Part shown: in pieces, positions 1 through 40,612 of the stretch
Numbering within the stretch: the stretch's first letter is position 1
How the letters are laid out: every line of letters begins with the position of its first letter
Sequence record: MT446393.1
Source: Escherichia virus TH16
Direction: 5' to 3' (one strand)
Length of the DNA stretch: 40,612 bases
Made by a program: the position numbers and the translations under genes
Notes under the pieces: model-generated
Told to the model about the DNA's origin: nothing
The model's database searches: none
What the model saw: the letters and a program-made list of their open reading frames with translations, nothing else

Positions 1-668
1 AATCGCCATCGTGGAAGTCGTAGTTTTTAGACTTGACATACTTCGTGCGAATGAGACCTGAAGACGTATTGAAGTCCACTCCTTTTACCATGACCTCGCC
101 ATCAATCATCAGGCCAGTGCCTTCGTATCCAGCCTGCTTCAGGAACCACAGCCAGTCGCTAGACTCGGTCTCCCAGAGGTCCTCTCGAGAAGTGTCCAGC
201 CAGCTCAGGGCCGGAAGTGACTTAGACTCACGGCTCAACCATTGGGTCTCACCAGTAGGGAAGACCGGGAGGTTCAACCGGACACCATCGTACTTCACTT
301 CAGCTTCCAGCGACCCAGCAGCTTCCAGAGCCTTCTTAACGCCAGACTCAGAGTAATCTACAGCGCGGTGCGGGTTAGTTTTAATAGTTGTCATTGTGTT
401 ATCTCCATGTGTCGAGTTGGTTAGCGAGACAGTTAAGGAAGCCTGTGGCAGTGTTGTACAGTACGTCTTCATCGCGGTGTGCGAAGATCTTAAGCGCGAA
501 GATGTTACCAGCTCGGTCCTCGACTTGAAGTCTCATGAACTCTTTCCGAAGATGCGCCTCGTACCAGTCCTGCTGTATCACGCAGAAGTCTAACTGATAT
601 AGTCGGTTACACGCTGCTTTGAAAGCGTTTAGGTTGCCACTGTAAAGTCTGCCCATAGCGTTATGCTC
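1..668. repeat. Window-terminal direct duplication; 1..668 is identical to 39945..40612 (circular or overlapping assembly)
   Basis: Identical ORFs in the track at offset 39944 (33..356 and 39977..40300; 399..656 and 40343..40600). Confidence 0.9.
399..656 (-). CDS. gp1.2: gp1.2-like inhibitor of host dGTP triphosphohydrolase (85 aa); second copy at 40343..40600
   Basis: Translation MGRLYSGNLNAFKAA... matches the remembered T7 gp1.2 N-terminus and length; ATG start checked. Confidence 0.75.
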   Translation of the reverse strand: MGRLYSGNLNAFKAACNRLYQLDFCVIQQDWYEAHLRKEFMRLQVEDRAGNIFALKIFAHRDEDVLYNTATGFLNCLANQLDTWR

Positions 669-840
669 CTACGAAGTATTTCTCTTGGTTTACCAGCGAG
701 TCTTTTCCTTCAGCGTTACGGAAAGCACCCTTGACACCACCGCCACGCTTGGTCTTGTTCAGCTTGCGACCCTTCGGAATGTAATCTTCAGTCTGCTGAC
801 GTTCACGGATGCGCTCGAAGTTGATAGTGTTCTGATACAT
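661..840 (-). CDS. gp1.1: gp1.1-like small basic protein (59 aa from the internal ATG)
   Basis: KGRKLNKTKR motif as in remembered T7 gp1.1; track ORF 661..906 begins with TTG, so the ATG at 840 (GGAG upstream) was chosen. Confidence 0.5.
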   Translation of the reverse strand: MYQNTINFERIRERQQTEDYIPKGRKLNKTKRGGGVKGAFRNAEGKDSLVNQEKYFVGA

Positions 841-892
841 GTGGTTAAATCTCCAGTAGTTTACGTTAGGTAGTAGCTTTGCTACAGGGTTA

Positions 893-932
893 ATCATGAA
901 GGCCAAGACTTTGAGTCATGACCTTGAGTCTA
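893..932 (-). promoter_or_regulatory. Conserved hairpin-forming element, candidate RNase III processing site (R1.1-like position)
   Basis: Shares the AAGGTCA...TGGCCTT stem with elements at 9879..9926 and 33349..33398; can pair as an 11/12-bp stem. Confidence 0.35.
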
Positions 933-953
933 ATCCTATAGTGATAGTTTAGG
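931..953 (-). promoter_or_regulatory. Phage RNAP promoter (phi1.1-like); minus-strand CCTAAACTATCACTATAGGATTA
   Basis: Matches the window-wide promoter consensus; predicted TSS near 936. Confidence 0.65.
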
Positions 954-1027
954 TTAACCTCTTCTGCGTTGGATTAAAGTGAATACTGCGAGTGCTCCCA
1001 GCCACAGGGCCAGTAACTGTAGGTCTG

Positions 1028-1228
1028 TCATTTGGTTGCCGCCTCTTTAAGAGCCTGTTCGTGTGCCCGCTCCACCTGCTTAACCAACCACTTGAATGGG
1101 ACGTTAAGTTGCTTTGACATCTCGGTAGGGATGACCGTGGTCTTCACCAGACCCTTGCCGTTGTGTTCTGTTACGGTCACGATTTGAGTCCCACCCTTAA
1201 CGCCAGTCTGCTTGTGTGCAAATTTCAT
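1028..1228 (-). CDS. Hypothetical protein (66 aa) immediately downstream of the RNAP gene
   Basis: ATG start with AGGAG RBS; tightly packed after the RNAP stop. Confidence 0.5.
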   Translation of the reverse strand: MKFAHKQTGVKGGTQIVTVTEHNGKGLVKTTVIPTEMSKQLNVPFKWLVKQVERAHEQALKEAATK

Positions 1229-1242
1229 AACTCTCTCTCCTG

Positions 1243-3924
1243 TTAAGCGAATGCAAAGTCTGAAGACAAGATGTCTTCGATATTCAGTTTACCTTTCTTC
1301 GGAAGCTCAGGCAACTTGTCGCGCTGACTCTCGTGAAGCTGGTATTCGAACTGCTCGTAGAAGTCCAGCAGCACATCGTTGTCGCGGTAGGTCTCGACCA
1401 TCGTCTCACGGACTCCACGGAACAGATACTCAGCGTCAGCCGGGATGGTCCCGAAGCTATCGTGAATCACTGCGAATGACACCACGCCATACTTGCGGTG
1501 CGTGTGGACTACAGTCTTGCGGAGGTGGCTACCATCTTGTGAGTGGACGAAGTTCGGGCTAATGCCTGACTCCTGCTTGTGCTTGTCCAGCTCTTTCTTC
1601 GTGCCTTTGTTGACTGTAGGCTGAAGGTTGAATGACCCTAAGAACATCAGGTTCAAACGTGTGGTATCCTTCTTGCGGTATTCCTGCCAGACCGGGAAAC
1701 CATCAGGTGTGACCCAGTGTACCGGAAGGCAAGGCTTCAGGATTTCGCCAGTCTTCTTGTCCTTCACTTCAGCAGCCAGCAGCTTGGCAGCGCCTTGAAG
1801 CCACTTCATCGCGTCTACCGCAGCAACTACGGTCACACTCACAGCCTCCCAGATCATCTTAGCCATGAAGCGAGACGCTTGGCTTGGCTCAGTGAACATA
1901 GCGCCAGACCCTGAGTCAATCGCTGGCATCACGATGTCCTCGTAAACTTGGTCTGCGAAGCCGTACTCTTTCGACCCGTAGGCCAGAGTCATGACTGAAC
2001 GCTTAGTGACCTTGCGTGACATACCGTAGGTCAGCCACTGACGGGCCAGCTCGCGTGTCCCCAGCTTGATACGCTCGGTAATCTCACCAGTTTTCTTGTC
2101 CTCGTGAGTCACCATCTCGTTGTCCGTACCGTTAACCAGCAGGACTTTAAGCTCCTCCTCAATTCGATCAGACACGATGCGGTAGATGTCTTGAACCTTA
2201 CCGGATGGCGTTAGGTTTACTGCATGTCCACCGATGTGGTCACGAAGCATCGCGCTGAAGTGCTGAATCCCAGAGCAGGACCCATCGAACGCTATCGGCA
2301 GCGAGCAGGAGTAAGACAGGCCGTGGTGCATTACGCCAGCATACTCGAAGCAGAACGCGAGGAAGCAGAACGGAGAGTCTACCTTACCCCACCACTCAAT
2401 GCTGTCCATCGGTGCCTTAGCAGCAGCCATGATGTTAGCGTGGTTGTCTTCCACCCACTTGATGCGCTCCTCGAAGGTGACTTTATCGACACCCGCACAG
2501 TTTGCACCGTGGACCTTCAGCCATTTAAAACCATCAGCACCAATAGGCTTGCCGACTGCCAGAGTCAGGAGACCCTTCTGCATGTCGTTACCCTGAGGGT
2601 TGAACATCGGTACAGCGTAGACGCGACCCCGCCAATCCATGTTGTATGGAAACCAGATGGCCTTGAACTGAGAGAACTTGTTCGCTTGGTTGACGATAAA
2701 GCTCAGTGACAATCTGCGTGACTGTCTGGCCTTCTCGCGGCGATAGATACCAGCAGCAGCCTTCTTCCATGCCTTGAGTTCTTCTTCAGTCTCACCCGCA
2801 TAGTCCTCAGGCTTCAGTGGTTCCATCTGAGGGATGTCATCAATAGGCGTGTTGTTCAGCTTCTCGACCATGTTCACCACGTCCAGAACCTTCTTGTTAA
2901 CTTTCCAAGGTGTATTCTGGATGATGTTCACAGCGTCATAGACTTCAGGCATGTACACGTCTTCGTAACGTGCTGCCGCAGACTTGGAACCTAAGCGAAT
3001 CAGCGGCAATGGTCTGCGACCTTTGGCCCAATACCCACCTCCTACGACACCAGTCCACGGCTTAGGTGGAACTACGCAAGGTTGATAGACTGGCGCGATA
3101 CCCGCAAGGCTGAAGCCACGTTGTGCCATCTTCTTGACCCAGAATTCTGACAGGTGGACCATCTCTACATCAGCCGCTGCATTGCCAGCACCATAACGCT
3201 TAAGCTCGACCAATTGTGTTGACTGGATGACAATCTCAAGCATCTTGATGCCAACGTGTACCGCCTCGGTAGGACTCCAAGTCCCCCACGCATCTTCCAG
3301 TTGACCTTGCTCCAGCATGGAGGCCTCAACCGCTTGCATGTAGGCTTTCTTGTAGGATGCCCCGGCTCGCTTGTTCAGGTTCTCAGCTATCGCCTTTTTG
3401 AAGTGCTCCTTCTCCTGATCACGGATTCGACCGAAGCGGATTTCATCCTCAAGTGTGCGACCTATCGCGGAGGCCATCGGTGTAATCGGTATCCCTTCAG
3501 GCTTGACCAGCTTGGAGAGAATGACCTTCAGTATGATAACCGCAGCAGACTCACAGGAGATGCGCATAGAGCGGTCCTTGACGGCCTTCTCTTCAGTGCT
3601 CAACATGGTGAACGCTACGCTAGGACGAGAGGTTGACAGCTTCCCGTCTTGACCTTCATGCCACTCCTTTACGGCTTGCGCAATCTTAGGGACCAGAGTC
3701 TGCATCAAAGGTTTGGCGACCTGATTGTCTGCCAGTTCCCCGCGCTCAGTCTGTCGCTCAAGGTTCTTGATGAAACGTCGCTCGCCTTCAGTGTATGCCT
3801 CATGCTCAAGCTGAAGCTGTTTGACTGCAAGGTCCTGCCCGTAGTGGTCAGCCAGCAGGTTAAACGGCTCAATGGCGTTTGACACATCAGAGAAGTCGTG
3901 TTTGTCAATAGAGATGACGCTCAT
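1243..3924 (-). CDS. gp1: Single-subunit DNA-dependent RNA polymerase (893 aa)
   Basis: Clear similarity to T7/T3 RNAP along the whole length (e.g. FPYNMDWRGRVYAV, ESGISPNFVHSQDGSHLRKTVV, C-terminal FAFA). Confidence 0.97.
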   Translation of the reverse strand: MSVISIDKHDFSDVSNAIEPFNLLADHYGQDLAVKQLQLEHEAYTEGERRFIKNLERQTERGELADNQVAKPLMQTLVPKIAQAVKEWHEGQDGKLSTSRPSVAFTMLSTEEKAVKDRSMRISCESAAVIILKVILSKLVKPEGIPITPMASAIGRTLEDEIRFGRIRDQEKEHFKKAIAENLNKRAGASYKKAYMQAVEASMLEQGQLEDAWGTWSPTEAVHVGIKMLEIVIQSTQLVELKRYGAGNAAADVEMVHLSEFWVKKMAQRGFSLAGIAPVYQPCVVPPKPWTGVVGGGYWAKGRRPLPLIRLGSKSAAARYEDVYMPEVYDAVNIIQNTPWKVNKKVLDVVNMVEKLNNTPIDDIPQMEPLKPEDYAGETEEELKAWKKAAAGIYRREKARQSRRLSLSFIVNQANKFSQFKAIWFPYNMDWRGRVYAVPMFNPQGNDMQKGLLTLAVGKPIGADGFKWLKVHGANCAGVDKVTFEERIKWVEDNHANIMAAAKAPMDSIEWWGKVDSPFCFLAFCFEYAGVMHHGLSYSCSLPIAFDGSCSGIQHFSAMLRDHIGGHAVNLTPSGKVQDIYRIVSDRIEEELKVLLVNGTDNEMVTHEDKKTGEITERIKLGTRELARQWLTYGMSRKVTKRSVMTLAYGSKEYGFADQVYEDIVMPAIDSGSGAMFTEPSQASRFMAKMIWEAVSVTVVAAVDAMKWLQGAAKLLAAEVKDKKTGEILKPCLPVHWVTPDGFPVWQEYRKKDTTRLNLMFLGSFNLQPTVNKGTKKELDKHKQESGISPNFVHSQDGSHLRKTVVHTHRKYGVVSFAVIHDSFGTIPADAEYLFRGVRETMVETYRDNDVLLDFYEQFEYQLHESQRDKLPELPKKGKLNIEDILSSDFAFA

Positions 3925-3993
3925 ACTTAAAGTCCTTGTTATTAGTCTTTCACTTAAAGTCTCTTCGGTCTTTCACTTGGAGTCTTAGACCTT

Positions 3994-4016
3994 GAGTCCT
4001 ATAGTGATAATTAAGT
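3994..4016 (-). promoter_or_regulatory. Degenerate phage-promoter-like site upstream of the RNAP gene
   Basis: Minus-strand ACTTAATTATCACTATAGGACTC; mismatches at -14, -11 and +3 to +6. Confidence 0.35.
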
Positions 4017-4021
4017 CAGGA

Positions 4022-4282
4022 TTACTTGCATATCAGCGGGTTAGCGTGGAGATGACTGAAGCCACCGTTGGTAGTGTGCTTGATTGTTGACCGTTGGTCT
4101 ATCGCCTTCCAGCCTGAGACCAGAAGTTTACCATCATCGGTGATTGGTCGTCCACCATACGCCAGACACACCAGCTCGGACTTATGGCCCTCTGCTCTCA
4201 GGCGGCGCTGGAGGAACATATCGCGCTGTACTTGCTCCATGCGGCTACGGCTTGATGATTTATGAGTGTATACGGTTTTCAT
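4022..4282 (-). CDS. Hypothetical early protein (86 aa)
   Basis: ATG start; stop overlaps the start of the upstream gene by 1 nt (TAATG). Confidence 0.5.
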   Translation of the reverse strand: MKTVYTHKSSSRSRMEQVQRDMFLQRRLRAEGHKSELVCLAYGGRPITDDGKLLVSGWKAIDQRSTIKHTTNGGFSHLHANPLICK

Positions 4283-4479
4283 TACAGTTTGCTCCCAAGA
4301 GTTGCGATGTCCCAGACGTTCGCTAAGTTGCGCATGAATCGTCCGTTAGGTTGACGTACAGTCCAGCGACCCAGACGTACATAGTTGAATTTGTAGACTT
4401 TACACGCCTTGTTGATGTCTCTCACCAGCACGTAGGCGATAAGTACATAGCCTATGGCTATCAATAGTGCAGATATCAT
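4282..4479 (-). CDS. Hypothetical early protein with an N-terminal hydrophobic helix (65 aa)
   Basis: ATG start; MISALLIAIGYVLIAYVLV hydrophobic N-terminus. Confidence 0.5.
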   Translation of the reverse strand: MISALLIAIGYVLIAYVLVRDINKACKVYKFNYVRLGRWTVRQPNGRFMRNLANVWDIATLGSKL

Positions 4480-4565
4480 AGCGATTTCCGTTTAATACAA
4501 TCGTATATCCCATAACCTATCATCCAGATAACTGGCGCTAGGCATACCCAATATCCCACACTCAT
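4476..4565 (-). CDS. Small hydrophobic peptide ORF (29 aa), not in the ORF track
   Basis: AGGAG RBS 6 nt upstream of ATG; stop overlaps the next ATG (ATGA); MSVGYWVCLAPVIWMIGYGIYDCIKRKSL. Confidence 0.3.
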   Translation of the reverse strand: MSVGYWVCLAPVIWMIGYGIYDCIKRKSL

Positions 4566-4632
4566 AGTTAACTCCTATTAATGCAAGTGGTAATCTTCGA
4601 GGCCACCTATCAGTTAGATGACCTCTCGTCTA

Positions 4633-4782
4633 TCACTCAGCGTGTAAGCTGTCGTGAATACGTTTGCGGCTACCGTAGACCACTTTCAATAGACGCATAG
4701 CCGCATCGTGGTTTAACCGCCCGGTCTTGACCAAAATCCGGGCGTTGGTGACGTGGTGCTGGCAGAGACCATAAGTTACCAT
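4633..4782 (-). CDS. Hypothetical early protein (49 aa from the internal ATG)
   Basis: Track ORF 4633..4827 begins with TTG; ATG at 4782 has a GAGG-type RBS. Confidence 0.4.
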   Translation of the reverse strand: MVTYGLCQHHVTNARILVKTGRLNHDAAMRLLKVVYGSRKRIHDSLHAE

Positions 4783-5300
4783 CTTGATGGCCTCACCTCT
4801 TGCAGCTTGGACACAAGGAAGAAGCAATCCACCAGTATCAACTTGCCATTCACGGCCCGTACATTGCGTGGGCTTATCTCAAACTGAATGTCAGACCCAA
4901 AGTTAGCGCAAGCATCCAGCGCCATCAGTACATCCATCAGACCTTCCCGCACAGTCTCAGTCTCAGACCTGTCGTGTGCAGCTTGGAATATCTCGTACCA
5001 CTTGTGATACAGGTCAGCAGGTCGAGAGAATCTCGGAGACCGTGAGAAGCAATCGCGCAGCACCTGATAGAGTTGCCACTGGTCATCATCTAAATGCGCC
5101 TTGAGTCCTCGTGTTGGTGGCATGTGGTCCATCTCATACGTGCCAACCTCAATCATCTTGACTTCAGGGAACAGTGGAGACTCAGGGAACCATCCCCATG
5201 CCATACACTCCTTTATTGGGTCAGAAGAGACCAGAAGTACACGCTTCCCGCAATCCTTCAGGTAGCACTTAGTGAACGCGCCTTTGCCTATCAGTTTCAT
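4776..5300 (-). CDS. gp0.7: gp0.7-like protein kinase, short form (174 aa) without the long C-terminal region of T7 gp0.7
   Basis: GKGAF glycine-rich segment and weak similarity to the remembered T7 gp0.7 kinase region; position before gene 1. Confidence 0.45.
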   Translation of the reverse strand: MKLIGKGAFTKCYLKDCGKRVLLVSSDPIKECMAWGWFPESPLFPEVKMIEVGTYEMDHMPPTRGLKAHLDDDQWQLYQVLRDCFSRSPRFSRPADLYHKWYEIFQAAHDRSETETVREGLMDVLMALDACANFGSDIQFEISPRNVRAVNGKLILVDCFFLVSKLQEVRPSRW

Positions 5301-5316
5301 GTTGTTATTCCTTGCG

Positions 5317-5505
5317 TTAGAATGGATTAGACCATGTGCTGTACTGGTGGTTGGAAATCATGCCAGACTTGCAGAGACTGTCTGTATAGTCATTCCAATA
5401 CTGCTGTTTAGCTATGTCGTCGCCTCTGAAAGTCTCAGGGAACTCGCGGAAAGTCTCACGACATTCAGCTATCACTTCCGCTTTGGTCATCTTACGATAC
5501 GCCAT
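5317..5505 (-). CDS. Hypothetical early protein (62 aa), second gene of the early operon
   Basis: ATG start with AGGA upstream; preceded by the conserved leader element. Confidence 0.5.
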   Translation of the reverse strand: MAYRKMTKAEVIAECRETFREFPETFRGDDIAKQQYWNDYTDSLCKSGMISNHQYSTWSNPF

Positions 5506-5513
5506 CTTGTTTA

Positions 5514-5573
5514 TCCTATAGTTAGTGACTATCAGTCAGGCCGCTATGAGTCTAACGACCTGTAGTTAATCAC
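5514..5573. repeat. Copy 1 of a ~60-bp duplicated early leader element (contains TGACT-ATC-AGTCA inverted repeat)
   Basis: 21 bp identical to 5764..5784 plus flanking similarity to 5755..5822. Confidence 0.6.
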
Positions 5574-5746
5574 TGGCAATTGAACGCGTGGTCCAGGCAC
5601 ATATTGAACTCTTCCTGCGCAAGCTCGCGGCTATCCCACTCAGTCTTAGACAATCCGTAGATTATCACATGCTTAGTGTGATTCTTACAGTCTTTAGCCG
5701 TATACCAGATTAAGCCAAGATCTTCGTTCATCGCTATGATTTTCAT
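5570..5746 (-). CDS. Hypothetical first early protein (58 aa) in the position of T7 gene 0.3; not in the ORF track
   Basis: ATG with AGGAG RBS; translation MKIIAMNEDLGLIWYTAKDCKNHTKHVIIYGLSKTEWDSRELAQEEFNMCLDHAFNCQ. Confidence 0.5.
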   Translation of the reverse strand: MKIIAMNEDLGLIWYTAKDCKNHTKHVIIYGLSKTEWDSRELAQEEFNMCLDHAFNCQ

Positions 5747-5754
5747 AATGTTAC

Positions 5755-5822
5755 TCCTACTTAAGTTAGTGACTATCAGTCAGGGCCTTCAGATGTAGAC
5801 TCAAAGACCCTGTAGTTAGTCG
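5755..5822. repeat. Copy 2 of the duplicated early leader element
   Basis: See 5514..5573. Confidence 0.6.
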
Positions 5823-5929
5823 CTATCGGCGCACATTAAGAGTTTATCCAGATTGTTAAAGAGCATTCCCTTCAGTCATATGACTTCAGGTAGACCATTT
5901 CAGTGTCGGTCATCACCGTTGTTTCGATG

Positions 5930-5966
5930 TGGTACATACTACTTTAAGTCGTTACTGCTTGTCAAC
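5930..5966 (-). promoter_or_regulatory. Host sigma70-type early promoter (T7 A3-like)
   Basis: Minus-strand TTGACA, 18-nt spacer, TAGTAT; flanks resemble the remembered T7 A2/A3 region. Confidence 0.5.
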
Positions 5967-6064
5967 CACTTTCTGTCATCTGCCTGTTGTTCGTATGACT
6001 TATCAGGCTGTCTACTTGACCGGGATGACCCGGCGTCTTCACTATCCGGTTGTTGCCGTGTCGT

Positions 6065-6107
6065 GTTGACGGAAGTTATTTAGCCATAGTCTAGACCTAT
6101 AGTCAAT
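6065..6107 (-). promoter_or_regulatory. Candidate host sigma70 promoter (T7 A1-like)
   Basis: Minus-strand TTGACT, 17-nt spacer, CTAAAT. Confidence 0.3.
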
Positions 6108-6329
6108 AGGTAATTTGAAATAATATTGATTAAGCTATCGTCGGCCCCATAGTGACTAAGAGGATATAGTCTTTGACTAACATGTATTAGACCTTAAGTC
6201 TATATCTTTGTGTCTATTAACTGTAGGTCTGTGACTGTAAGCTGTGAGTGTCTTATGGTTGTGACTGTAGGTTAGTGAGACTGTAGGTGTATGACGTAAT
6301 GTTATACTATAACACTATACAGATAGAGA

Positions 6330-6502
6330 CTCAGAGACAGACCCATAGTCCCAACCTATCGTCCAACCTCCAGCCATAGCCACTACCTATCGTCGACCTA
6401 ACGTCTTGACCATCGGTCCAACCCTATGATAGACTGGGGTAGGGCCTTTGGTCTGACTTAAAGAGGGCCTATGGGGAGACTTTAGGTTCTTGAACTGTGA
6501 GA
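6330..6502. repeat. Collapsed terminal-repeat region; physical genome left end near 6502 on the minus strand
   Basis: Minus strand from 6502 reads TCTCACAGTTCAAGAACCTAAAGTCTCCCCATAGG..., resembling remembered T7/T3 left ends; repeat extent is an estimate. Confidence 0.45.
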
Positions 6503-6739
6503 TGTGGTCTCAAACTTTTGGTCCAAAACTCATCGTCACTACTGTAGGCCTAAGCCACTGTAGGTCAAGGACCGTAGGTCAGGCGACACTAGGATAGACC
6601 AATAAGTAGGATGACCCTAAGTGAGCTTCTATTAAGGTGTTACCTAAAGTCCTTGACTACAGTAGCTAAGGTCAGTAGAGTAGCGTCAGCTATGAACTGA
6701 CCTTAGGTCTTACGCTCATGAATAGTTACCATGATTGCG

Positions 6740-6898
6740 TTAATTACACTGAGAGACCAGAGAACATACGAGAGTCTCGACCCACCCGACCCACTGACTT
6801 CCAGCAGTAACGCCAGCAGCAAGTAGAACAGCAGCAAGAAACCTGTATGTAGCTCGATTGGTCGCCAGAGCTTTAAGTACAGCTTTGGTCTTTGCCAT
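6740..6898 (-). CDS. gp19.5: gp19.5-like small hydrophobic protein (52 aa), not in the ORF track
   Basis: AGGAGG RBS; position after terminase; translation MAKTKAVLKALATNRATYRFLAAVLLAAGVTAGSQWVGWVETLVCSLVSQCN. Confidence 0.45.
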   Translation of the reverse strand: MAKTKAVLKALATNRATYRFLAAVLLAAGVTAGSQWVGWVETLVCSLVSQCN

Positions 6899-7078
6899 AT
6901 GCTACATACCTCCTGTATCTATGGTCGGTGACTATCTGTATTGGAGGGATTATGATTAATATCACCCTCCTTCCATCGGTGCAAGCCTTAGGTAAGAACT
7001 CGGAGTCTGCCTCCTAAGGTCTTGCATAAAGTCTGCATATGTATATTCACTACAGTAATACTATAAGTAACCGGGGGT

Positions 7079-7101
7079 CTTCCCTATAGTGATAGTTAAG
7101 T
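7079..7101 (-). promoter_or_regulatory. Phage RNAP promoter downstream of terminase, reading toward the genome end (phiOR-like)
   Basis: Minus-strand CTTAACTATCACTATAGGGAAGA. Confidence 0.6.
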
Positions 7102-7195
7102 CCAAACTTCTTGTAAAACAGTAGGTTAGACTGGTAGTAACTATAGGTTACTAACTGCGTATTCATGCAGCTTTCACCTATAGTTATTCATTCAG

Positions 7196-8962
7196 CTAGT
7201 GGAGCGTAACGTATGACCCTAGTCCAAGCTCGTCGTCCGTATCGTTAGTTACCCGGACCCCATTGTCCCAGAACTCAGTGTGGATGGACTCGAAGCCTTT
7301 CCGTGGGTTCTCCATCTGTTCCTCCAGCCACTCCTCAGTGACTTCACGTTCGCCTTTGTTGGCATCCTTCGCCATAGACTCAACGAAGAACTGTACACCG
7401 ATAGCCAGCGCATCAAGTCGGTCATCGTGTGCCAAGGCTCCACGCTCACGAGAGATACGGGTCATCTGGTAGAAGAGAGAGTAGATAGGGTTACGAACAC
7501 CGTCCTTATCAGAGGCCGACTGGTAGTCTTGGACGATAGCAGCAGCGTTAACGATAAGTCGGTGAGACCCCATGATAGGCTCCAGAACGTCACAGATGCG
7601 GAGTTCTTTCTGACCCTTACTCTTCACTTCAGTTACAGCAGCAGGATGGATACGGGCCGCTACAGGCTTGAATAACTCAAGGTACATACCATCACCGAAG
7701 TTACCCTCAATGACGTATTCGTTTACCTTCCACTTACGACCAATCTTAGCCAAGGCTTCTAGCGTAGAGTCCTCATAACCACCACGCATACCTCCAACTT
7801 CCATAGCGAAGATGTAGCCGTTGAGCTGATACAGTACCGCATAGCCAGTTTCATCCTTACCACGACCACTAGGGTCAATGACCAGAATCTTCTGGGTGTA
7901 CGAACTGAAGGCAGAACCTACAGTCTGATACGTGTGGTATGAGTCACCCATGAGTCCAACGTTAGGAACGTCCTCACGCTTGTTCTGAGGGTTTGGCAAC
8001 CATTGGTAGACCATTGGGCTGGACGCTGGGTCCAAGTCCGCTACGATAAGGTCACGGAGCTTCAGAGGGTACTTCTCAGCATCACTCAGGTTCGGGTTAA
8101 GCATGAACTGCAGAGCGAAGCCAGCTTTACCATAGGACAGCTCACGTTCCTTCAGGTCCGTATCATCGAATCGTACCTCATCGGTCGGACGCCAGTAGAA
8201 GGGCTCAGGGTCCTCTTCAAGCTCTGCCTGAAGCATCGGTGCCAGACGGTCGCCGTAAGACTGCCAGTCCTTCCTGTCGCGTGGATAACGAGCCGGCCAG
8301 ATAGTAGTGGTATATCCACGGCCTTCAAGCTCACGATACAGGGTCATCTCGTTCTGAGGAGTACCCAGATAGATGATTGTGCCTCCAGGCTTCAGGATAG
8401 CGTCGAACTCTTTAACAAGCTCTGACAGACGGTCTCGTGCAGCCTGAGTCGCTGAGTTGTTAGGAACCTCCACGTCATCTGCAATCAGGATGTCAGCACG
8501 ACTACCAGTCAACTGACCAGTGATACCAACGGACTTAACCGAAGGTGAGTGGTCTGGCTTGGCTGGCCCAACGTCGAAGCTGATAACCGCATCTCGCTGT
8601 CTCTGCTTAGGTTTGAGTTCCTGAAGCTGAGGCATGAGGTCGATGATTCGCTTGATGAAGATGGAGTTAGCATCTGCTCGTTCCTTTGAGGCCGACACAA
8701 TCATGAACTTCAAGTCTGGGTTGTTCCATAGTTTCCAGACCACGAAACCACAGGTCAGAAACGACTTGCCAATACCACGGAACGCCTGAAGGATGAAGCG
8801 GCGATTATCCCCAGCAGCCAGCTTCTTACACATATCTATCTGGCAGCGGGTTGGAACCGGAAGGCTAAGAGCTTTCCAGAGAACGAAGATGAAGAACACG
8901 AAGTCGTCCCTCATCCTTTGGGTCATTTCTGCCTGTCTTTCAGCGGGTGTTTTCTTAGACAT
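7196..8962 (-). CDS. gp19: Terminase large subunit / DNA maturase B (588 aa)
   Basis: Length and sequence similar to T7 gp19; ATG start and TAG stop checked. Confidence 0.95.
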
Positions 8963-9392
8963 ATAGTCCCTCCAACATTAGGTCCCGGACAGCGATAGCC
9001 TCCTCTAAAGTGGGACGTGTTGTGCGCATATAGGCATTCCCGCGTTTAACCTGAATCCTATAACCATTCTGGTGATGGGTAACGCACTTCACTCCCGTCT
9101 TAGAGTCATAATGGCTACCAGTGTTCCAAGTGTTCTCAGCAGCAGTAACGAGCCGTAAGTTACTTAAGGTGTTATTGCTAGGGTTCCTGTCGATGTGGTC
9201 TATTTGCATACCATGTGGTATAGGACCATTGGTTAGTTCCCATATCACACGATGCGCCCGCTTACTGCCTAGACTTCGTGTCTGTACTATCCAATATCCC
9301 ATCAGACTTAATGTCCCCACAGGCTTTCCAGTCCTAACGGAGCCCAGACCGGATGGACTAGCCGGGTCCACTTTGTAGTAATCACTTAACAC
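8955..9392 (-). CDS. HNH homing endonuclease with a C-terminal AP2-like domain (145 aa)
   Basis: HRVIWEL...[20 protein letters not shown]...EN HNH motif; GTG start with AAGGAGG RBS; paralog of 38895..39377. Confidence 0.8.
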
Positions 9393-9819
9393 CTTGGAGC
9401 CTCCTTATTGTGTCCTGAAGCGCCTTCTCCTTAAGGTCTGCCTCCTGAGTTATTCGGATAATACTTTTAGAAGTTTCTGGGTGTAGTTCGACTCTACCAT
9501 TAGGGAAGCATCTACTGACATCTGACTCGATGAGACCTGAGGTGTTGACTCGGACGCGCAGCCGCTTGTTATCGCGGTTAAGGTCAGCAATAATCCTATC
9601 AGTAGAGCCTTCCAGCGCGGACATCTTGTCTTGCCACTCGGCTGACACTTTGTCGAGTTCACCTTGGACAGCAGCCCGTTGATTCTCTCGTGCCTCAAGT
9701 TTCGTGATGTACTCATTGTTTACCTTCGCCTCCCACTTATTGTCTGCCACCCAGTAGCCTGAACAGAACAGGAGTCCTGCCACCAGCCAAGGTACGCATC
9801 TACGTAAAAGTTCGAGCAT
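9382..9819 (-). CDS. gp18.5: Rz-like i-spanin (145 aa)
   Basis: N-terminal transmembrane segment then a charged coiled-coil-like region; position after the small terminase. Confidence 0.7.
   Translation of the reverse strand: MLELLRRCVPWLVAGLLFCSGYWVADNKWEAKVNNEYITKLEARENQRAAVQGELDKVSAEWQDKMSALEGSTDRIIADLNRDNKRLRVRVNTSGLIESDVSRCFPNGRVELHPETSKSIIRITQEADLKEKALQDTIRRLQGVK
9450..9716 (-). CDS. gp18.7: Candidate Rz1-like o-spanin embedded in the +1 frame of Rz
   Basis: Embedded ORF with hydrophobic stretch then ...AITSGC lipobox-like cysteine; start uncertain because the n-region from the first ATG is unusually long. Confidence 0.35.
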   Translation of the reverse strand: MSTSRNLRHERINGLLSKVNSTKCQPSGKTRCPRWKALLIGLLLTLTAITSGCASESTPQVSSSQMSVDASLMVESNYTQKLLKVLSE

Positions 9820-9878
9820 AGTTGCCCTCCTCGTTTCTCAGAACCCACGTAGCGTCTCCGCCCGTAGTGTGTGTTAAC

Positions 9879-9926
9879 CATAAAGGCCACTACATATAGT
9901 AATGACCTTGAGTCTAACACTTAAGA
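9879..9926 (-). promoter_or_regulatory. Conserved hairpin element, candidate RNase III site (R18.5-like position)
   Basis: ATAAAGGCCAC...AATGACCTTGAGTCTA block shared with 33349..33398. Confidence 0.35.
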
Positions 9927-9929
9927 GAT

Positions 9930-10193
9930 TTATTGCACTCCATATCCAGTGTCATTATCTTCCGTAGCGGAGAGCACCTTATCGTACTCTGCGTTCAGTG
10001 CCTCCATATCAGCGAGCGTCTTCTCGTCAACAGACACCTTGCTTAGCACGAAGTTGTGACGAGCCAGTAGCTTCTCAATGGCGTTGTAAAGCTGAGGTGA
10101 ACGCTTAGTGTCATCCCGCAGGTCTTGCAGCATGAGTCGAGCACGTTCAGTATCTAGCATTAAGAGGAACTTCTCTAAGTCCATCTGCGTCAT
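9930..10193 (-). CDS. gp18: Terminase small subunit / DNA packaging protein A (87 aa)
   Basis: Similarity to T7 gp18 (LMLDTERARLMLQDL...SPQLYNAIEKLL). Confidence 0.8.
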   Translation of the reverse strand: MTQMDLEKFLLMLDTERARLMLQDLRDDTKRSPQLYNAIEKLLARHNFVLSKVSVDEKTLADMEALNAEYDKVLSATEDNDTGYGVQ

Positions 10194-10384
10194 GTTTTAC
10201 CACCTCCTTTAATCGTTTTGTAGACTAGCACACCAATCTGGGCAACGGTGTACGCGATAGCTGCAACGTAGAACCATTCGTTCAGTGTAAGTCCGAAGAA
10301 GAACCTACTGGCACCATCAGCCGCAGCGGTCCCGACGATAGGAGAGGCTTTAAGGACCTCATTCTTGAAGTCTAACTCAATCAT
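10190..10384 (-). CDS. gp17.5: Holin (64 aa)
   Basis: Similarity to T7 gp17.5 (FFFGLTLNEWFYVAAIAYTV). Confidence 0.85.
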   Translation of the reverse strand: MIELDFKNEVLKASPIVGTAAADGASRFFFGLTLNEWFYVAAIAYTVAQIGVLVYKTIKGGGKT

Positions 10385-10489
10385 AAAACCTCCAGTTTAA
10401 AGCGGGTCGTCCGTGACCCAAAGTTGTTACCATACGTTGGTCAGCGTGTAGATAGAGTAAAGAGATGGGAACCATCAGAGCCATTGATA

Positions 10490-13051
10490 TTAAATGGTTT
10501 TTACTTCCCATCGACGGTCATAATAGTGGCTGAATCCACAATACGTTAAAGTCATATGGACAACCGCCATTGACATAGAAGCAGTCGCGGTATCAACACG
10601 AATAAACGTTTTACCGCCCGCCACCATTTTACTTACGGTAATCCCATCAAGAGATTTATCCCCGGCATCCTTATTCGACCATAGAACACCAGAGGCTACG
10701 TTTGCTTCTGTTGACCCAGAAATACTAAACAATAACCGACCTCCTGCTTCGGTGCCCCTCAGCCCATTCTTATTTACGGGTATGATAGACATCTCCCCCG
10801 CCAGAAAGCACCCACCTTCAAATCTGCTTTCTTCTCCAACAGCGGTAAGAAGGATATCTACACAACGGTTCCACGGTAGGATGAACGACGCTGTCTCAGT
10901 TCGTACTTGTCTGAAATACGCTTCGCTGTTAACCGCTGCGGATGACATAAGCACCCCGTTATATGAATTTGCACCTTCAAGTGGCGCAGACCCGTAAACC
11001 CTGCCTCCGACGGATGAGCTTTTTACAAGTGTGTTAGAGTAGACAGCAGTGCCATCGGTGAGTTTGATGAATCTGAACATTTCGCCAAAATAGAACGAGT
11101 TACCGTATGCACCAACGTTAAGGCCGTCCACCTTATTTATCAATTGGATAGTATAATCGGATTTTACATACCCGGAATCCAATACAATACTACCTTTAGG
11201 CATGCGTGATTCATTCTTCGGCGGGGTTATAAATCTCAATACCCCAGTATTCATAGACGACTGAATCCAACACGACACGTTGCGAAACACGACTTTATAG
11301 GTATCGTCAGTTCCTTCGTATGCGGAAAAGTCTAACGCATCGACGCCGTTTATACCCTCTATCCCTAAACCATCGATCTCCAAGCTGCGGATATTACCCA
11401 TAAAAGAGTGAGGCTTGATACACCCGTCAGCAGCGATATTCGTCGATTTTATGTACACAATGGGTGCGCCTGATGCGGGCACTTCAGGGGCATATGTAGT
11501 ACGGTTAATCGCTGCGCCCCATAAATAGCCGTAGTCGCAGTGGTGCGCCCATATCGCTCTCATATCCAGCGAGGTGGAACCGGATACCGCAAAGCCATAG
11601 GTGCAATCGTAAGCATAAAGATTGCTGACAGTGCTTACGAAAGCAGCATTAGGGAACGCGAATTTGTAGTGATAGAACTCGACGTTATTTATGTCAAACA
11701 GCTTGCCTCCACCACCGTTTGTCCCGGGATCACTTATCAGTAAAGGGCACCCGGAATACGCGCTATCTGCGTTACGAAACGCGATGTTATTTACGTGCGG
11801 ATTGTGCGCCCATAGGGTTGAAATAAACCCGCCTTTCCCTGACGTGTAAATAATGCTCTGTCGTGGTTTGACTCCTCGTAAGTCTAAACTCTTGCCAGCC
11901 CATCTGTTTAAGCTAATATCAATCTGGGTGGTACCTATGTAGATTGGCTGTTCGATTAATAAAGGAATATTGTGCGCAATACTTGCGGTATACGCAGCCA
12001 GCATCGCGGCCCCGTCGTTATGGGTTCCGGAAAGGTCGGCAGCCCCCATGCTTGGCGCTTTAGGATATGGAGTTCCCTGAATGGTGCTGCCGTCGATATA
12101 TGGAGCATCCATCCATGCGCCAAACATTTTAGGGGTAATTCCCCGAACGTTTGATAAGTCCCTTTTCCAGCGCTTACCTCCACTAGTAATTATAACAACG
12201 CCATTATCATCATTAGTTGTGGAATCTGCTAAGTCCGCATAGAACCACCCACCACCAGAATCACCAGACTCATTGGGTGTAATTGATGTTGTATGTTTTT
12301 CTACAAAAATGCGCTGGCCATCAACATCAGGTTCAATAGTTCTTAATGTTGATATATCATCGCATTTGCCGATTAACTTAAATCCATCGCTTTTATTTAA
12401 TTGACTCCTTAATGAAGCATCACCAACACTAACCCACGCACCTAGTCCAATCCCACCGGAAGTTTCAGGAGTTGAACCAGCAGGAACGTTCTTTGGAAGC
12501 GTACCATCCCAGCGGTAATAATCACCATCCTCTTCCCATAGCAGGACCTCGTTCCATGTTGTAACGTTGAAGCCTTTCTCGAAGGAGCGACGGGTAATAT
12601 AGCCAATTCGACCAGCTTCCTTGATACTCGCAGCGATTCCTCGTGCTTCGTCCTCGCTATCCTTAGCGTTGCCAGCAGAGGTACCAGCAGCATCGGCATA
12701 TTCCTTCGCTAAGTCAACCGTTTGGTCTCGACCTTCTTCTGCAATATGGATAGCCTGAAGCTCTGCATTGGTCAGGTCACTAGCTGTCAACACTGAGCCA
12801 TTCCTGAAGTCTACCACTAAGTCAGTTCCAGTCTGACGGTGAATACGAACGATGTCGAAACCTGATTGGTCAACCAACATCTCAATCATCGTTGGATTAA
12901 GGAATCGGTAATCTCGACCAACTTCCAGTACACGGTTCATGGTAGGGTTAGAGCTATTCACCAGCGTAACAACAACAAACGTTCTGGCTAGGTAGTCGAA
13001 CTCAATCCTGTACTGAGTGTTTCCTGAAGGGAATTGTGTAATAGTGGACAT
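10490..13051 (-). CDS. gp17: Tail fibre / tailspike (853 aa): T7 gp17-like N-terminal adaptor with a large unrelated C-terminal region
   Basis: N-terminal ~150 aa align with T7 gp17 ([28 protein letters not shown]); the rest is Gly/Ser/Thr-rich and not T7-like. Confidence 0.9.
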
Positions 13052-20344: not shown

Positions 20345-20373
20345 GAAGTCTCCTTATAACCTTAAGGGCCTAT

Positions 20374-20396
20374 AGTCCCTATAGTGATAGTTAAGG
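20374..20396 (-). promoter_or_regulatory. Phage RNAP promoter (phi13-like)
   Basis: Minus-strand CCTTAACTATCACTATAGGGACT. Confidence 0.7.
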
Positions 20397-20420
20397 TAAA
20401 TCTATAGACCCTTCAATAAG

Positions 20421-28825: not shown

Positions 28826-28886
28826 CTTGAATCTCCTCTTTAAGTTAAGACTAAAGTCTATCTTATAGTCATATCTTAGGTCCTAA

Positions 28887-28909
28887 AGTCCCTATAGTGA
28901 TAGTTTAGT
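28887..28909 (-). promoter_or_regulatory. Phage RNAP promoter (phi6.5-like)
   Basis: Minus-strand ACTAAACTATCACTATAGGGACT. Confidence 0.75.
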
Positions 28910-29035
28910 GTTTCACCTATGGATGACTGTTGGATTGATAGGATATGACTATCGGTTAGACTCAGTGTTTAGGACGGTTGTTCGACCCGAACCACTTGTA
29001 CATGCAGTAAAGGGCCAGAAGTCCAGCCCAGTATA

Positions 29036-33325: not shown

Positions 33326-33348
33326 GGTTAATCCTCCGTTTAGTCTAA

Positions 33349-33398
33349 TCATAAAGGCCACTCGCTGTGAATGACCTTGAGTCTAGACCTAGAAGTCT
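33349..33398 (-). promoter_or_regulatory. Conserved hairpin element, candidate RNase III site (R4.7-like position upstream of the polymerase gene)
   Basis: Same conserved block as 9879..9926. Confidence 0.35.
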
Positions 33399-35414: not shown

Positions 35415-35464
35415 TGGTCACTCCTTAATCAATAATGCGAACAAAGGGACAAGACTCATGGTCT

Positions 35465-35487
35465 CATCCCTAAGGTGATAGTTTAGC
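35465..35487 (-). promoter_or_regulatory. Variant phage promoter (TAAGG in place of TATAG) upstream of gene 4
   Basis: Minus-strand CTAAACTATCACCTTAGGGATGA; two mismatches in the -4/-3 region. Confidence 0.4.
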
Positions 35488-38894: not shown

Positions 38895-39377
38895 TTATAA
38901 TGAATCTCTTAAGGCTACTGCCTCGGCTATGGTCTTGGCATAACGGACCACACGTTCTCCATTAGCAACCTTCTTGATGCAGTATAGCTCTCGGCCTTTC
39001 ACTTTGGAGATGTGACGCTCTCCCGTGGCGTTGGTTGACATCTGGCCTTTGTTCTGGTTGTTCTCTGAGTGAGTCACCAGACGCAGGTTTGAAAGCCTGT
39101 TGTTGGAAGGGTTCCTGTCAATGTGGTCAATCTCCATACCATCTGGTATTTGGCCATATGCAAGTTCCCATATTACCCGATGTACCTGTAGGTGTTTGCG
39201 TCCCCACGGTGTCCTTACGTTTATTGTCCAATAGCCAGAAGTCTTCTTACTACCGACCCTTCTCCCAGAGTTAAGTGCCAGCCCTGAGGCCGACCTTTCA
39301 TCAACCTTAAATCTTGACTGTAGGATTGTCCTCAGTCCCTCGCCATTGGTAGAATGACGGGTGTCGCAGACTTCCAT
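38895..39377 (-). CDS. HNH homing endonuclease with AP2-like domain (about 160 aa from the ATG); overlaps the 3' end of the ligase gene
   Basis: [41 protein letters not shown]; ATG at 39377 with GGAGGAG RBS (track start 39512 is TTG). Confidence 0.8.
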   Translation of the reverse strand: MEVCDTRHSTNGEGLRTILQSRFKVDERSASGLALNSGRRVGSKKTSGYWTINVRTPWGRKHLQVHRVIWELAYGQIPDGMEIDHIDRNPSNNRLSNLRLVTHSENNQNKGQMSTNATGERHISKVKGRELYCIKKVANGERVVRYAKTIAEAVALRDSL

Positions 39378-40338
39378 CTGGTGTCTCCTCCATGTAGGTG
39401 ATTTGACAAGCCCACCCATTGTAGTAATCAGGGTCTGACTTAACGTTATCTGTGAACTCGGACATAAGGGCGCGACTAATGTTAGTTGCGGAGACCTCCA
39501 TCCCGTTCTCAAGCATCACGTCAAATCCGATGACCATGCCCTCGTTGGCTAGGCCATCCGTACCCCACACAGGGCGCACAACATGACCGTCTGCCTCTTC
39601 GCTCGGCTTCATCTTCCACATGCCAGACTTCTTGCCACGCTTCCAGCGTCCAAGAGGGTCTTTAACTACCAGACCTTCTTGCCCATCTGCGCGCTTCTCT
39701 TCGTACAAATCCTGAAGAGACTCAAGGTCGTACACTGTATGACTCTCAGATAATACCCAGTCGATTTCCGGGAAGTATTTCTGGAGGAGAGGGACGATAG
39801 CTTCGGCCTTCAGGCGAGTGACGCTATGGATAGGGCCTTCGGCTTTCGGGTCGGTGATGACGTTAAGGTCCACGATACCGTAGACGACCACCTTGATATG
39901 GGCTCGGTCCAGCCTGAACTGAGTAGTCTTGGACTTGAGGTCCCAATCGCCATCGTGGAAGTCGTAGTTTTTAGACTTGACATACTTCGTGCGAATGAGA
40001 CCTGAAGACGTATTGAAGTCCACTCCTTTTACCATGACCTCGCCATCAATCATCAGGCCAGTGCCTTCGTATCCAGCCTGCTTCAGGAACCACAGCCAGT
40101 CGCTAGACTCGGTCTCCCAGAGGTCCTCTCGAGAAGTGTCCAGCCAGCTCAGGGCCGGAAGTGACTTAGACTCACGGCTCAACCATTGGGTCTCACCAGT
40201 AGGGAAGACCGGGAGGTTCAACCGGACACCATCGTACTTCACTTCAGCTTCCAGCGACCCAGCAGCTTCCAGAGCCTTCTTAACGCCAGACTCAGAGTAA
40301 TCTACAGCGCGGTGCGGGTTAGTTTTAATAGTTGTCAT
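39307..40338 (-). CDS. gp1.3: ATP-dependent DNA ligase (343 aa from the ATG); its 5' part is duplicated at 1..394
   Basis: KYDGVR adenylation motif and strong similarity to T7 ligase (MKPSEEADG, DGSLRHPSF..RGTEDNP); GGAG RBS before the ATG at 40338. Confidence 0.95.
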   Translation of the reverse strand: MTTIKTNPHRAVDYSESGVKKALEAAGSLEAEVKYDGVRLNLPVFPTGETQWLSRESKSLPALSWLDTSREDLWETESSDWLWFLKQAGYEGTGLMIDGEVMVKGVDFNTSSGLIRTKYVKSKNYDFHDGDWDLKSKTTQFRLDRAHIKVVVYGIVDLNVITDPKAEGPIHSVTRLKAEAIVPLLQKYFPEIDWVLSESHTVYDLESLQDLYEEKRADGQEGLVVKDPLGRWKRGKKSGMWKMKPSEEADGHVVRPVWGTDGLANEGMVIGFDVMLENGMEVSATNISRALMSEFTDNVKSDPDYYNGWACQITYMEETPDGSLRHPSFYQWRGTEDNPTVKI

Positions 40339-40612
40339 TGTGTTATCTCCATGTGTCGAGTTGGTTAGCGAGACAGTTAAGGAAGCCTGTGGCAGTGTTG
40401 TACAGTACGTCTTCATCGCGGTGTGCGAAGATCTTAAGCGCGAAGATGTTACCAGCTCGGTCCTCGACTTGAAGTCTCATGAACTCTTTCCGAAGATGCG
40501 CCTCGTACCAGTCCTGCTGTATCACGCAGAAGTCTAACTGATATAGTCGGTTACACGCTGCTTTGAAAGCGTTTAGGTTGCCACTGTAAAGTCTGCCCAT
40601 AGCGTTATGCTC

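Follow-up and report, generated by a model that had tools for sequence, protein, structure and literature searches.

The R1.1 site of bacteriophage T7 is the best-studied substrate of Escherichia coli RNase III and the model substrate of the Nicholson laboratory. Ten RNase III sites are attributed to T7 as a whole (Dunn & Studier 1983, as cited in PMC6938266). Internal loops in such hairpins limit cleavage to one phosphodiester, and 3' hairpins stabilize the upstream RNA (PMC1540722, PMC3867540). For the proximal box of these substrates a consensus of G-C, A-U, A-U has been published (PMC1540722). Here we describe a family of hairpins in Escherichia virus TH16 (MT446393.1), for which the window, that is, the whole stretch of DNA analyzed, is 40,612 nt long. 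In common with R1.1, R0.5, R4.7 and R18.5 of T7, these hairpins have the motif ACUCAAGGUC-loop-GUGGCCUUUAUGAUU, a stem/loop/stem architecture, an intergenic position and an orientation on the coding strand, whereas their loop and lower-stem sequences differ from those of T7, the latter covarying. Taken together, homology to T7 and T3, fold, covariation, strand and gene order make it very probable that the blocks are RNase III processing signals of the T7 group, as predicted.

Nearly all long ORFs of the window lie on the minus strand and their BLAST matches are to Kayfunavirus and other T7-supergroup phages, and the sequence is therefore read as a K1F-like genome that is reverse-complemented and permuted. 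On these grounds it is a complete, circularly permuted genome of a Kayfunavirus podophage (K1F-like, T7 supergroup) with its genes on the minus strand. The closest record, MT350292, is 99.7% identical over the 361 nt tested, and K1F is about 94% identical over the same stretch. Bases 1-668 are identical to bases 39945-40612 at the other end; this repeat is an assembly overlap of a circularized contig, leaving a unique genome of about 39,944 bp, and the physical genome ends probably lie near 6200-6650. Near this right genome end, just past a gene-19.5-like ORF (6898-6740), stands a perfect 10-bp inverted repeat, CUAAGGUCAG...CUGACCUUAG, at 6670-6715 on the minus strand. A family of promoters for the phage polymerase, TAAACTATCACTATAGG, has 9-11 copies in the genome, again on the minus strand.

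The original prediction named a conserved block at 9879..9926 and 33349..33398 with a related copy at 893-932, and the sequence is as described at all of these places; the copy at 893-932 reads ATCATGAAGGCCA and carries one mismatch. A search for ATAAAGGCCA-N(5-25)-TGACCTTGAGTCTA gives exactly two matches (9880-9916 and 33351-33385), against an expectation of 0.00 from 100 shuffles, and the 14-mer TGACCTTGAGTCTA occurs exactly three times in the genome, at 919-932, 9903-9916 and 33372-33385. The three repeated blocks are real and far beyond chance. The list of three is genuine but incomplete, as three further copies are found in the early region, at 5762-5828, 5518-5578 and 4580-4641. Similarly, the proposed pairing of AAGGUCA with UGGCCUU on the minus-strand RNA is correct but understates the structure, which has an upper helix of 10-11 bp plus a lower stem; since this covarying lower stem of 5-8 bp stands beyond an asymmetric internal loop, each element extends over about 60 nt.

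The search for further copies used a covariance model built only from seven T7 sites (R0.3, R0.5, R1, R1.1, R1.3, R4.7 and R18.5). At their coordinates in the T7 genome the motif ACUCAAGGUC...GUGGCCUUUAU/GAUU was found, with the cut, which we take to fall after UAU, marked here by the slash. The coordinates are validated by the presence of this motif, by a control against the annotation of T3 and, for R1.1, by publications in which the sequence serves as an RNase III site or substrate (PMC6615863, PMC10359600, PMC1540722). Run over the whole TH16 genome with filters off, the model returns six matches at 30-50 bits (E 1e-10 to 3e-5), the next best having an E value of 0.38, and all six lie on the minus (coding) strand in gaps between genes. 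The canonical family thus has at least six members here, referred to as sites A to F. The control genome (NC_003298) carries stem_loop features labeled 'RNase III recognition site'; among these, the seven canonical sites and R6.5 are all recovered by the model at the annotated coordinates, with scores of 33-62 bits and no other match below E 0.3. Only the short R3.8 and R13 of T3 are missed, and R3.8 of T7 likewise goes undetected. A scan of the whole genome at Rfam gathering thresholds gives no match, so no curated family covers these sites. The reading of the three repeated blocks as RNase III sites is supported, still as a prediction, by model matches at 44-50 and 38 bits, and the comparison with T7 R-site sequences that had been suggested as a check bears it out, the motif ACUCAAGGUC...GUGGCCUUUAU/GAUU being common to both phages.

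Site F (9864..9923, minus strand; UUAGACUCAAGGUCAUUACUAUAUGUAGUGGCCUUUAUGGUUAAC) is the R18.5 homolog, with 44.0 bits and an E value of 5.8e-9. It lies in the gap between gene 18 and gene 18.5 (Rz-like), which is the R18.5 position originally proposed for it, and it has the R18.5-specific UAUGG common to T7 and T3. Its lower stem, GUGUUA/UAACAC, is followed by the internal loop GACUC/UAUGGU and the upper stem AAGGUCAUUAC/GUAGUGGCCUU, a fold of -22.3 kcal/mol (z -4.3); the predicted cut, aligned like those of the other sites to the T7 cut positions, is at 9880/9879. Its orthologs in K1F, EcoDS1, CR44b and EFA-1 score 54-56 bits. Site E (33335..33394, minus strand; CUAGACUCAAGGUCAUUCACAGCGAGUGGCCUUUAUGAUUAGAC; 50.3 bits, E 1.1e-10) overlaps the stop codon of a gp4.3-like ORF and ends 10 nt before the ATG of gene 5 (DNA polymerase) at 33325. 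Its lower stem is GUCUA/UAGAC and its predicted cut 33351/33350. T7 R1.1 has exactly the same upper stem and internal loop (ACUCAAGGUCAUUC / GAGUGGCCUUUAUGAUU). The assignment of this site to the R4.7 position holds insofar as it stands directly before gene 5 like R4.7 of T3; as the genome lacks a gene 4.7, R4.7 of T7 is matched in neighborhood only.

Site D (880..941, minus strand; UUAGACUCAAGGUCAUGACUCAAAGUCUUGGCCUUCAUGAUUAAC; 38.2 bits, E 2.3e-7, with the lower stem GGAUUA/UAACCC and a predicted cut at 896/895) is the R1.1 homolog. The phage RNA polymerase promoter ACCTAAACTATCACTATAGGATTAGA at 929..954 on the minus strand places the transcript start inside the lower stem, the site beginning at the +1 GG, and downstream follow a gp1.1 homolog (840-664, 45% identity) and then gp1.2. 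This is the phi1.1/R1.1 layout of T3 and agrees with the R1.1 position first proposed. At 903-905 site D reads GUCUUGG, whereas every relative examined reads GUCGUGG (or GUCGCGG), which leaves a U.U mismatch at the eighth upper-stem pair. The mismatch could weaken the site; a genuine mutation to that effect and a sequencing error are both conceivable.

Sites A to C all belong to the early region, where a promoter scan places host-type promoters upstream of them. The first of them, site A (5762..5828, minus strand; 31.1 bits, E 2.1e-5; predicted cut 5778/5777), stands between a host-type promoter (5965-5936) and the first early ORF (5746-5570), in an R0.3-like position. Site B (5518..5578, minus strand; 40.8 bits, E 4.4e-8; predicted cut 5534/5533), which precedes the second early ORF (5505-5317) in a position like that of R0.5, folds at -23.0 kcal/mol (z -3.8), and the base of its stem, CAGG/CCUG, matches R1 of T7 and T3. 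Site C (4580..4641, minus strand; 30.3 bits, E 3.4e-5; fold -21.2 kcal/mol; predicted cut 4596/4595) stands before an ORF of 29 aa, at a distance of three small ORFs from gene 1. Relative to sites D-F, the base of its upper stem, GAGGUCA/UGGCCUC, has A-U replaced by G-C, a compensatory change; orthologs are present in K1F, EcoDS1, CR44b and EFA-1, and by position site C has no exact counterpart in T7 or T3.

Structure prediction, which had also been named as a check, shows the expected fold at all six sites: both the minimum-energy and the centroid structures have a lower stem, an asymmetric internal loop (5 x 6 nt in sites D-F), an upper stem of about 10-11 bp and a small terminal loop, the whole helix spanning about two turns. 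Fold energies range from -17 to -23 kcal/mol, with z values of -2.6 to -4.3, and the T7 sites, folded likewise, have the identical two-stem architecture. The lower-stem sequences differ among sites D-F with pairing kept. In the proximal box, sites D-F have G-C, A-U, A-U and then C.U or C.C, as in native R1.1, while position 3 in sites A-C is C-G or G-C, which deviates from the consensus, as it does in R1 of T7 and T3. Kept pairing can also be seen by eye among the paralogs within the genome, for example at the base of the upper stem, where AAGGUCA/UGGCCUU, GAGGUCA/UGGCCUC and CAGGUC/GGCCUG replace one another. The conservation of pairing was also followed in 67 loci (1.18 Mb), namely annotated genome records of Kayfunavirus (four) and IMG/VR loci encoding relatives of the DNA polymerase (63). 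The model matches 69 elements in this set. In their alignment 93% of base-pair cells are paired, compared with 20-47% when the partners are slid, and in 15 of the 18 base pairs both partners have changed, which none of 500 shuffles equaled; the alignment was fitted to the model, which biases these figures in favor of the structure.

The overall layout is closest to that of T3, in which gene 1, a small ORF, a promoter overlapping R1.1, gene 1.1 and gene 1.2 follow one another. R4.7 of T3 resembles site E in standing directly before gene 5 and overlapping the upstream stop codon, and R18.5 of T3 resembles site F in lying between genes 18 and 18.5. T3 differs in belonging to the genus Teetrevirus rather than Kayfunavirus and in having R1 and R1.3, both absent here. 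Compared with T7, too, the R1.3 position between genes 1.2 and 1.3 carries no site, the genome having no intergenic gap for one, and gene 1 is not immediately preceded by a canonical site, as it is in T7 by R1. Care must be taken with names, however: orthologous and paralogous sites of T7 and T3 are not distinguishable by pairwise identity, so identity is uninformative on orthology and the sites are named by gene order only. Within Kayfunavirus the elements of K1F, EcoDS1, CR44b and EFA-1 are near-identical (30-56 bits), and K1F has matches at the same six positions; the early genes that surround sites A-C vary from genome to genome. The GenBank records inspected, K1F, EcoDS1 and CR44b among them, all leave these sites unmarked as RNase III sites; in MZ726794.1 the RNase III-type hairpin at gene 5 is annotated as a 'terminator'. 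In a more distant relative (54% polymerase identity; locus L027:13657-13736) a canonical site of the R6.5 style of T7 is seen with a promoter inside its loop.

How such signals would work can be pictured from T7. The genes would be transcribed into long polycistronic RNAs, by the host RNA polymerase in the early region and by the phage RNA polymerase elsewhere. At each signal the mRNA would fold into an interrupted helix of about 20 bp, to which the host RNase III would bind. Because the internal loop distorts the helix, the enzyme would cut the 3' strand alone, three nt past the upper stem (between GGCCUUUAU and G). The upstream fragment would then keep a 3'-terminal hairpin that may protect it against 3' exonucleases, and the downstream message would begin 20-40 nt before its own ribosome-binding site. 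Cleavage itself, the exact cut position and any effect on RNA stability are thus predicted by homology with T7. No transcript-end data were found in the literature for TH16 or Kayfunavirus. T7 grows without RNase III (PMC6938266), which suggests that processing may matter little for fitness.

Other roles can be imagined for hairpins of this kind. They could be RNA stability or translation elements that are not cleaved, either as protective structures or as sites at which RNase III or another protein only binds and modulates the downstream ribosome-binding site. RNase III is able to bind certain variants without cutting them (PMC1540722), the distance from the end of the lower stem's 3' arm to the start codon downstream is 10-40 nt, and the G-C or C-G pair at a proximal-box position in sites A-C and the mismatch in site D would suit such a role. 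Yet site E is identical in its upper stem and loop to R1.1 of T7, which is efficiently cleaved, and the CAGG/CCUG base of sites A and B is that of R1 of T7 and T3, an accepted cleavage site. We consider this reading improbable for the family, and a binding-only or structural RNA role may concern the weaker copies. Transcription terminators or attenuators, for the host or the phage RNA polymerase, are the least probable of the roles considered and hardly credible. Each site does have a stable, GC-containing hairpin followed by a U-rich CCUUUAU, and one GenBank record labels the gene-5 copy accordingly, but there is no U-run, the tails being UAUGAUU or ACUGAUA, and a terminator scan of 1-11000 reports none of the six sites. 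Termination would also be hard to reconcile with the essential genes (5, 18.5 and 19) that lie directly downstream, there being no new promoter between site E or F and the next gene, and the homologous elements of T7 and T3 are annotated as processing sites, apart from the terminators TE and Tphi.

As DNA palindromes, the blocks might form cruciforms or hairpins in replication or recombination, bind proteins or serve as patches of homology for the exchange of modules between phages. The R1.1 region of T7 overlaps the primary replication origin, and the blocks are conserved between otherwise mosaic genomes. Palindromes of the T7 RNase III type trigger DdmABC/Lamassu at the DNA level in either orientation (PMC11707656). 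What weighs on the other side is strandedness. The sense RNA folds better than its complement at all six sites (-19.4 versus -10.8 kcal/mol in one case, -22.3 versus -11.6 kcal/mol in another), the complementary strand being worse by 2.5 kcal/mol at site A to 10.7 kcal/mol at site F, because two conserved U.G pairs would turn into A.C on the other strand. These wobbles, together with one-sided changes from G-C to G-U, preserve only the fold of the mRNA sense, and the matches are on the coding strand in 69 of 69 cases among the relatives as well as in all six here. The lower stems, moreover, covary while their sequences differ between sites, which argues for a structure and not for a DNA-binding motif. 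A function as DNA in place of processing is therefore very improbable, and RNase III processing of the mRNA remains the preferred reading.

Sensing by DdmABC/Lamassu has been shown for T7 R-site palindromes and for similar palindromes of a T7-like vibriophage (PMC11707656). By analogy, the six to nine dispersed hairpins of TH16 might, in addition to guiding RNA processing, act at the DNA level and be sensed as palindromes by defenses of the Lamassu/DdmABC type, a suggestion that we put forward as speculative and rather unlikely. If true, conserved processing signals would be a weakness open to exploitation, with an influence on the host range of Kayfunavirus phages. The value of the sites lies mainly in annotation, as K1F-like records leave them unmarked or, in one case, call a copy a terminator. 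Six canonical sites placed by the model, with three candidates found by eye, can supply predicted transcript boundaries for the engineering or modeling of phages that are therapeutic candidates. The elements are orthologs of textbook RNase III signals and bring no new biology beyond T7 and T3.

The three candidates are hairpins associated with promoters, and they resemble R3.8, R6.5 and R13, the non-canonical sites of T7 and T3. In T3, R3.8 lies at the +1 of a promoter and R6.5 and R13 enclose promoters, as with the respective candidates here. The R3.8-like hairpin (35445..35471, minus strand) starts where a promoter-like sequence preceding gene 4 has its +1, and T7 R3.8 has the same 3' flank, CCCUUUGUUCGCAUU; the hairpin shows an A-U to G-C compensatory change in relatives and is not detected by the canonical model. 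The R6.5-like element (28857..28960, minus strand) is an 11-bp helix (28942-28952 with 28865-28875) enclosing the promoter before gene 6.5, as R6.5 does in T7 and T3, with two independent compensatory changes in relatives and no sequence match to the canonical model. The R13-like element (20364..20413, minus strand), a 12-bp helix AAGGGUCUAUAG/CUAUAGGCCCUU around the gene 13 promoter, shows one-sided changes only in relatives and is the weakest candidate.

A variant of the phage-type promoter, TAATTATCACTATAGG, is located directly upstream of the RNA polymerase gene (3925-4017, minus strand). The near-invariant 70-nt leader that follows it begins with GGACUCAAGGUC, which is the 5' half of the RNase III motif without the 3' half. 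This leader (3940-4012) was considered as a possible equivalent of R1; it carries the shared GACUCAAGGUC but has a core helix of only 5 bp and no model match, and no covariation was seen in it in five genomes. It may represent R1 in degenerate form or serve in autoregulation.

In T7 the gp0.7 kinase is an activator of RNase III. No homolog of it was found anywhere in the TH16 genome by tblastn, so stimulation of RNase III by a kinase of the T7 type is not expected. A 174-aa early protein (4779-5300, minus strand) has a glycine-rich GKGAFTKCY motif reminiscent of kinase P-loops; its candidacy as a gp0.7-like kinase was dropped, as neither similarity to T7 gp0.7 nor a Pfam match was found for it. 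The corresponding slot in the near relative EFA-1 holds instead a gp0.7-like kinase and a SAM hydrolase, and the different genes in this slot indicate that the early region is mosaic. A 133-nt stretch (9122-9254) inside a 145-aa ORF (8955-9392) that lies between genes 18.5 and 19 is 71% identical to about 39050-39182, which sits within a 205-aa ORF (38895-39512). An HNH endonuclease is annotated at the corresponding position between 18.5 and 19 in CR44b, and the two stretches may be paralogous homing-endonuclease insertions.
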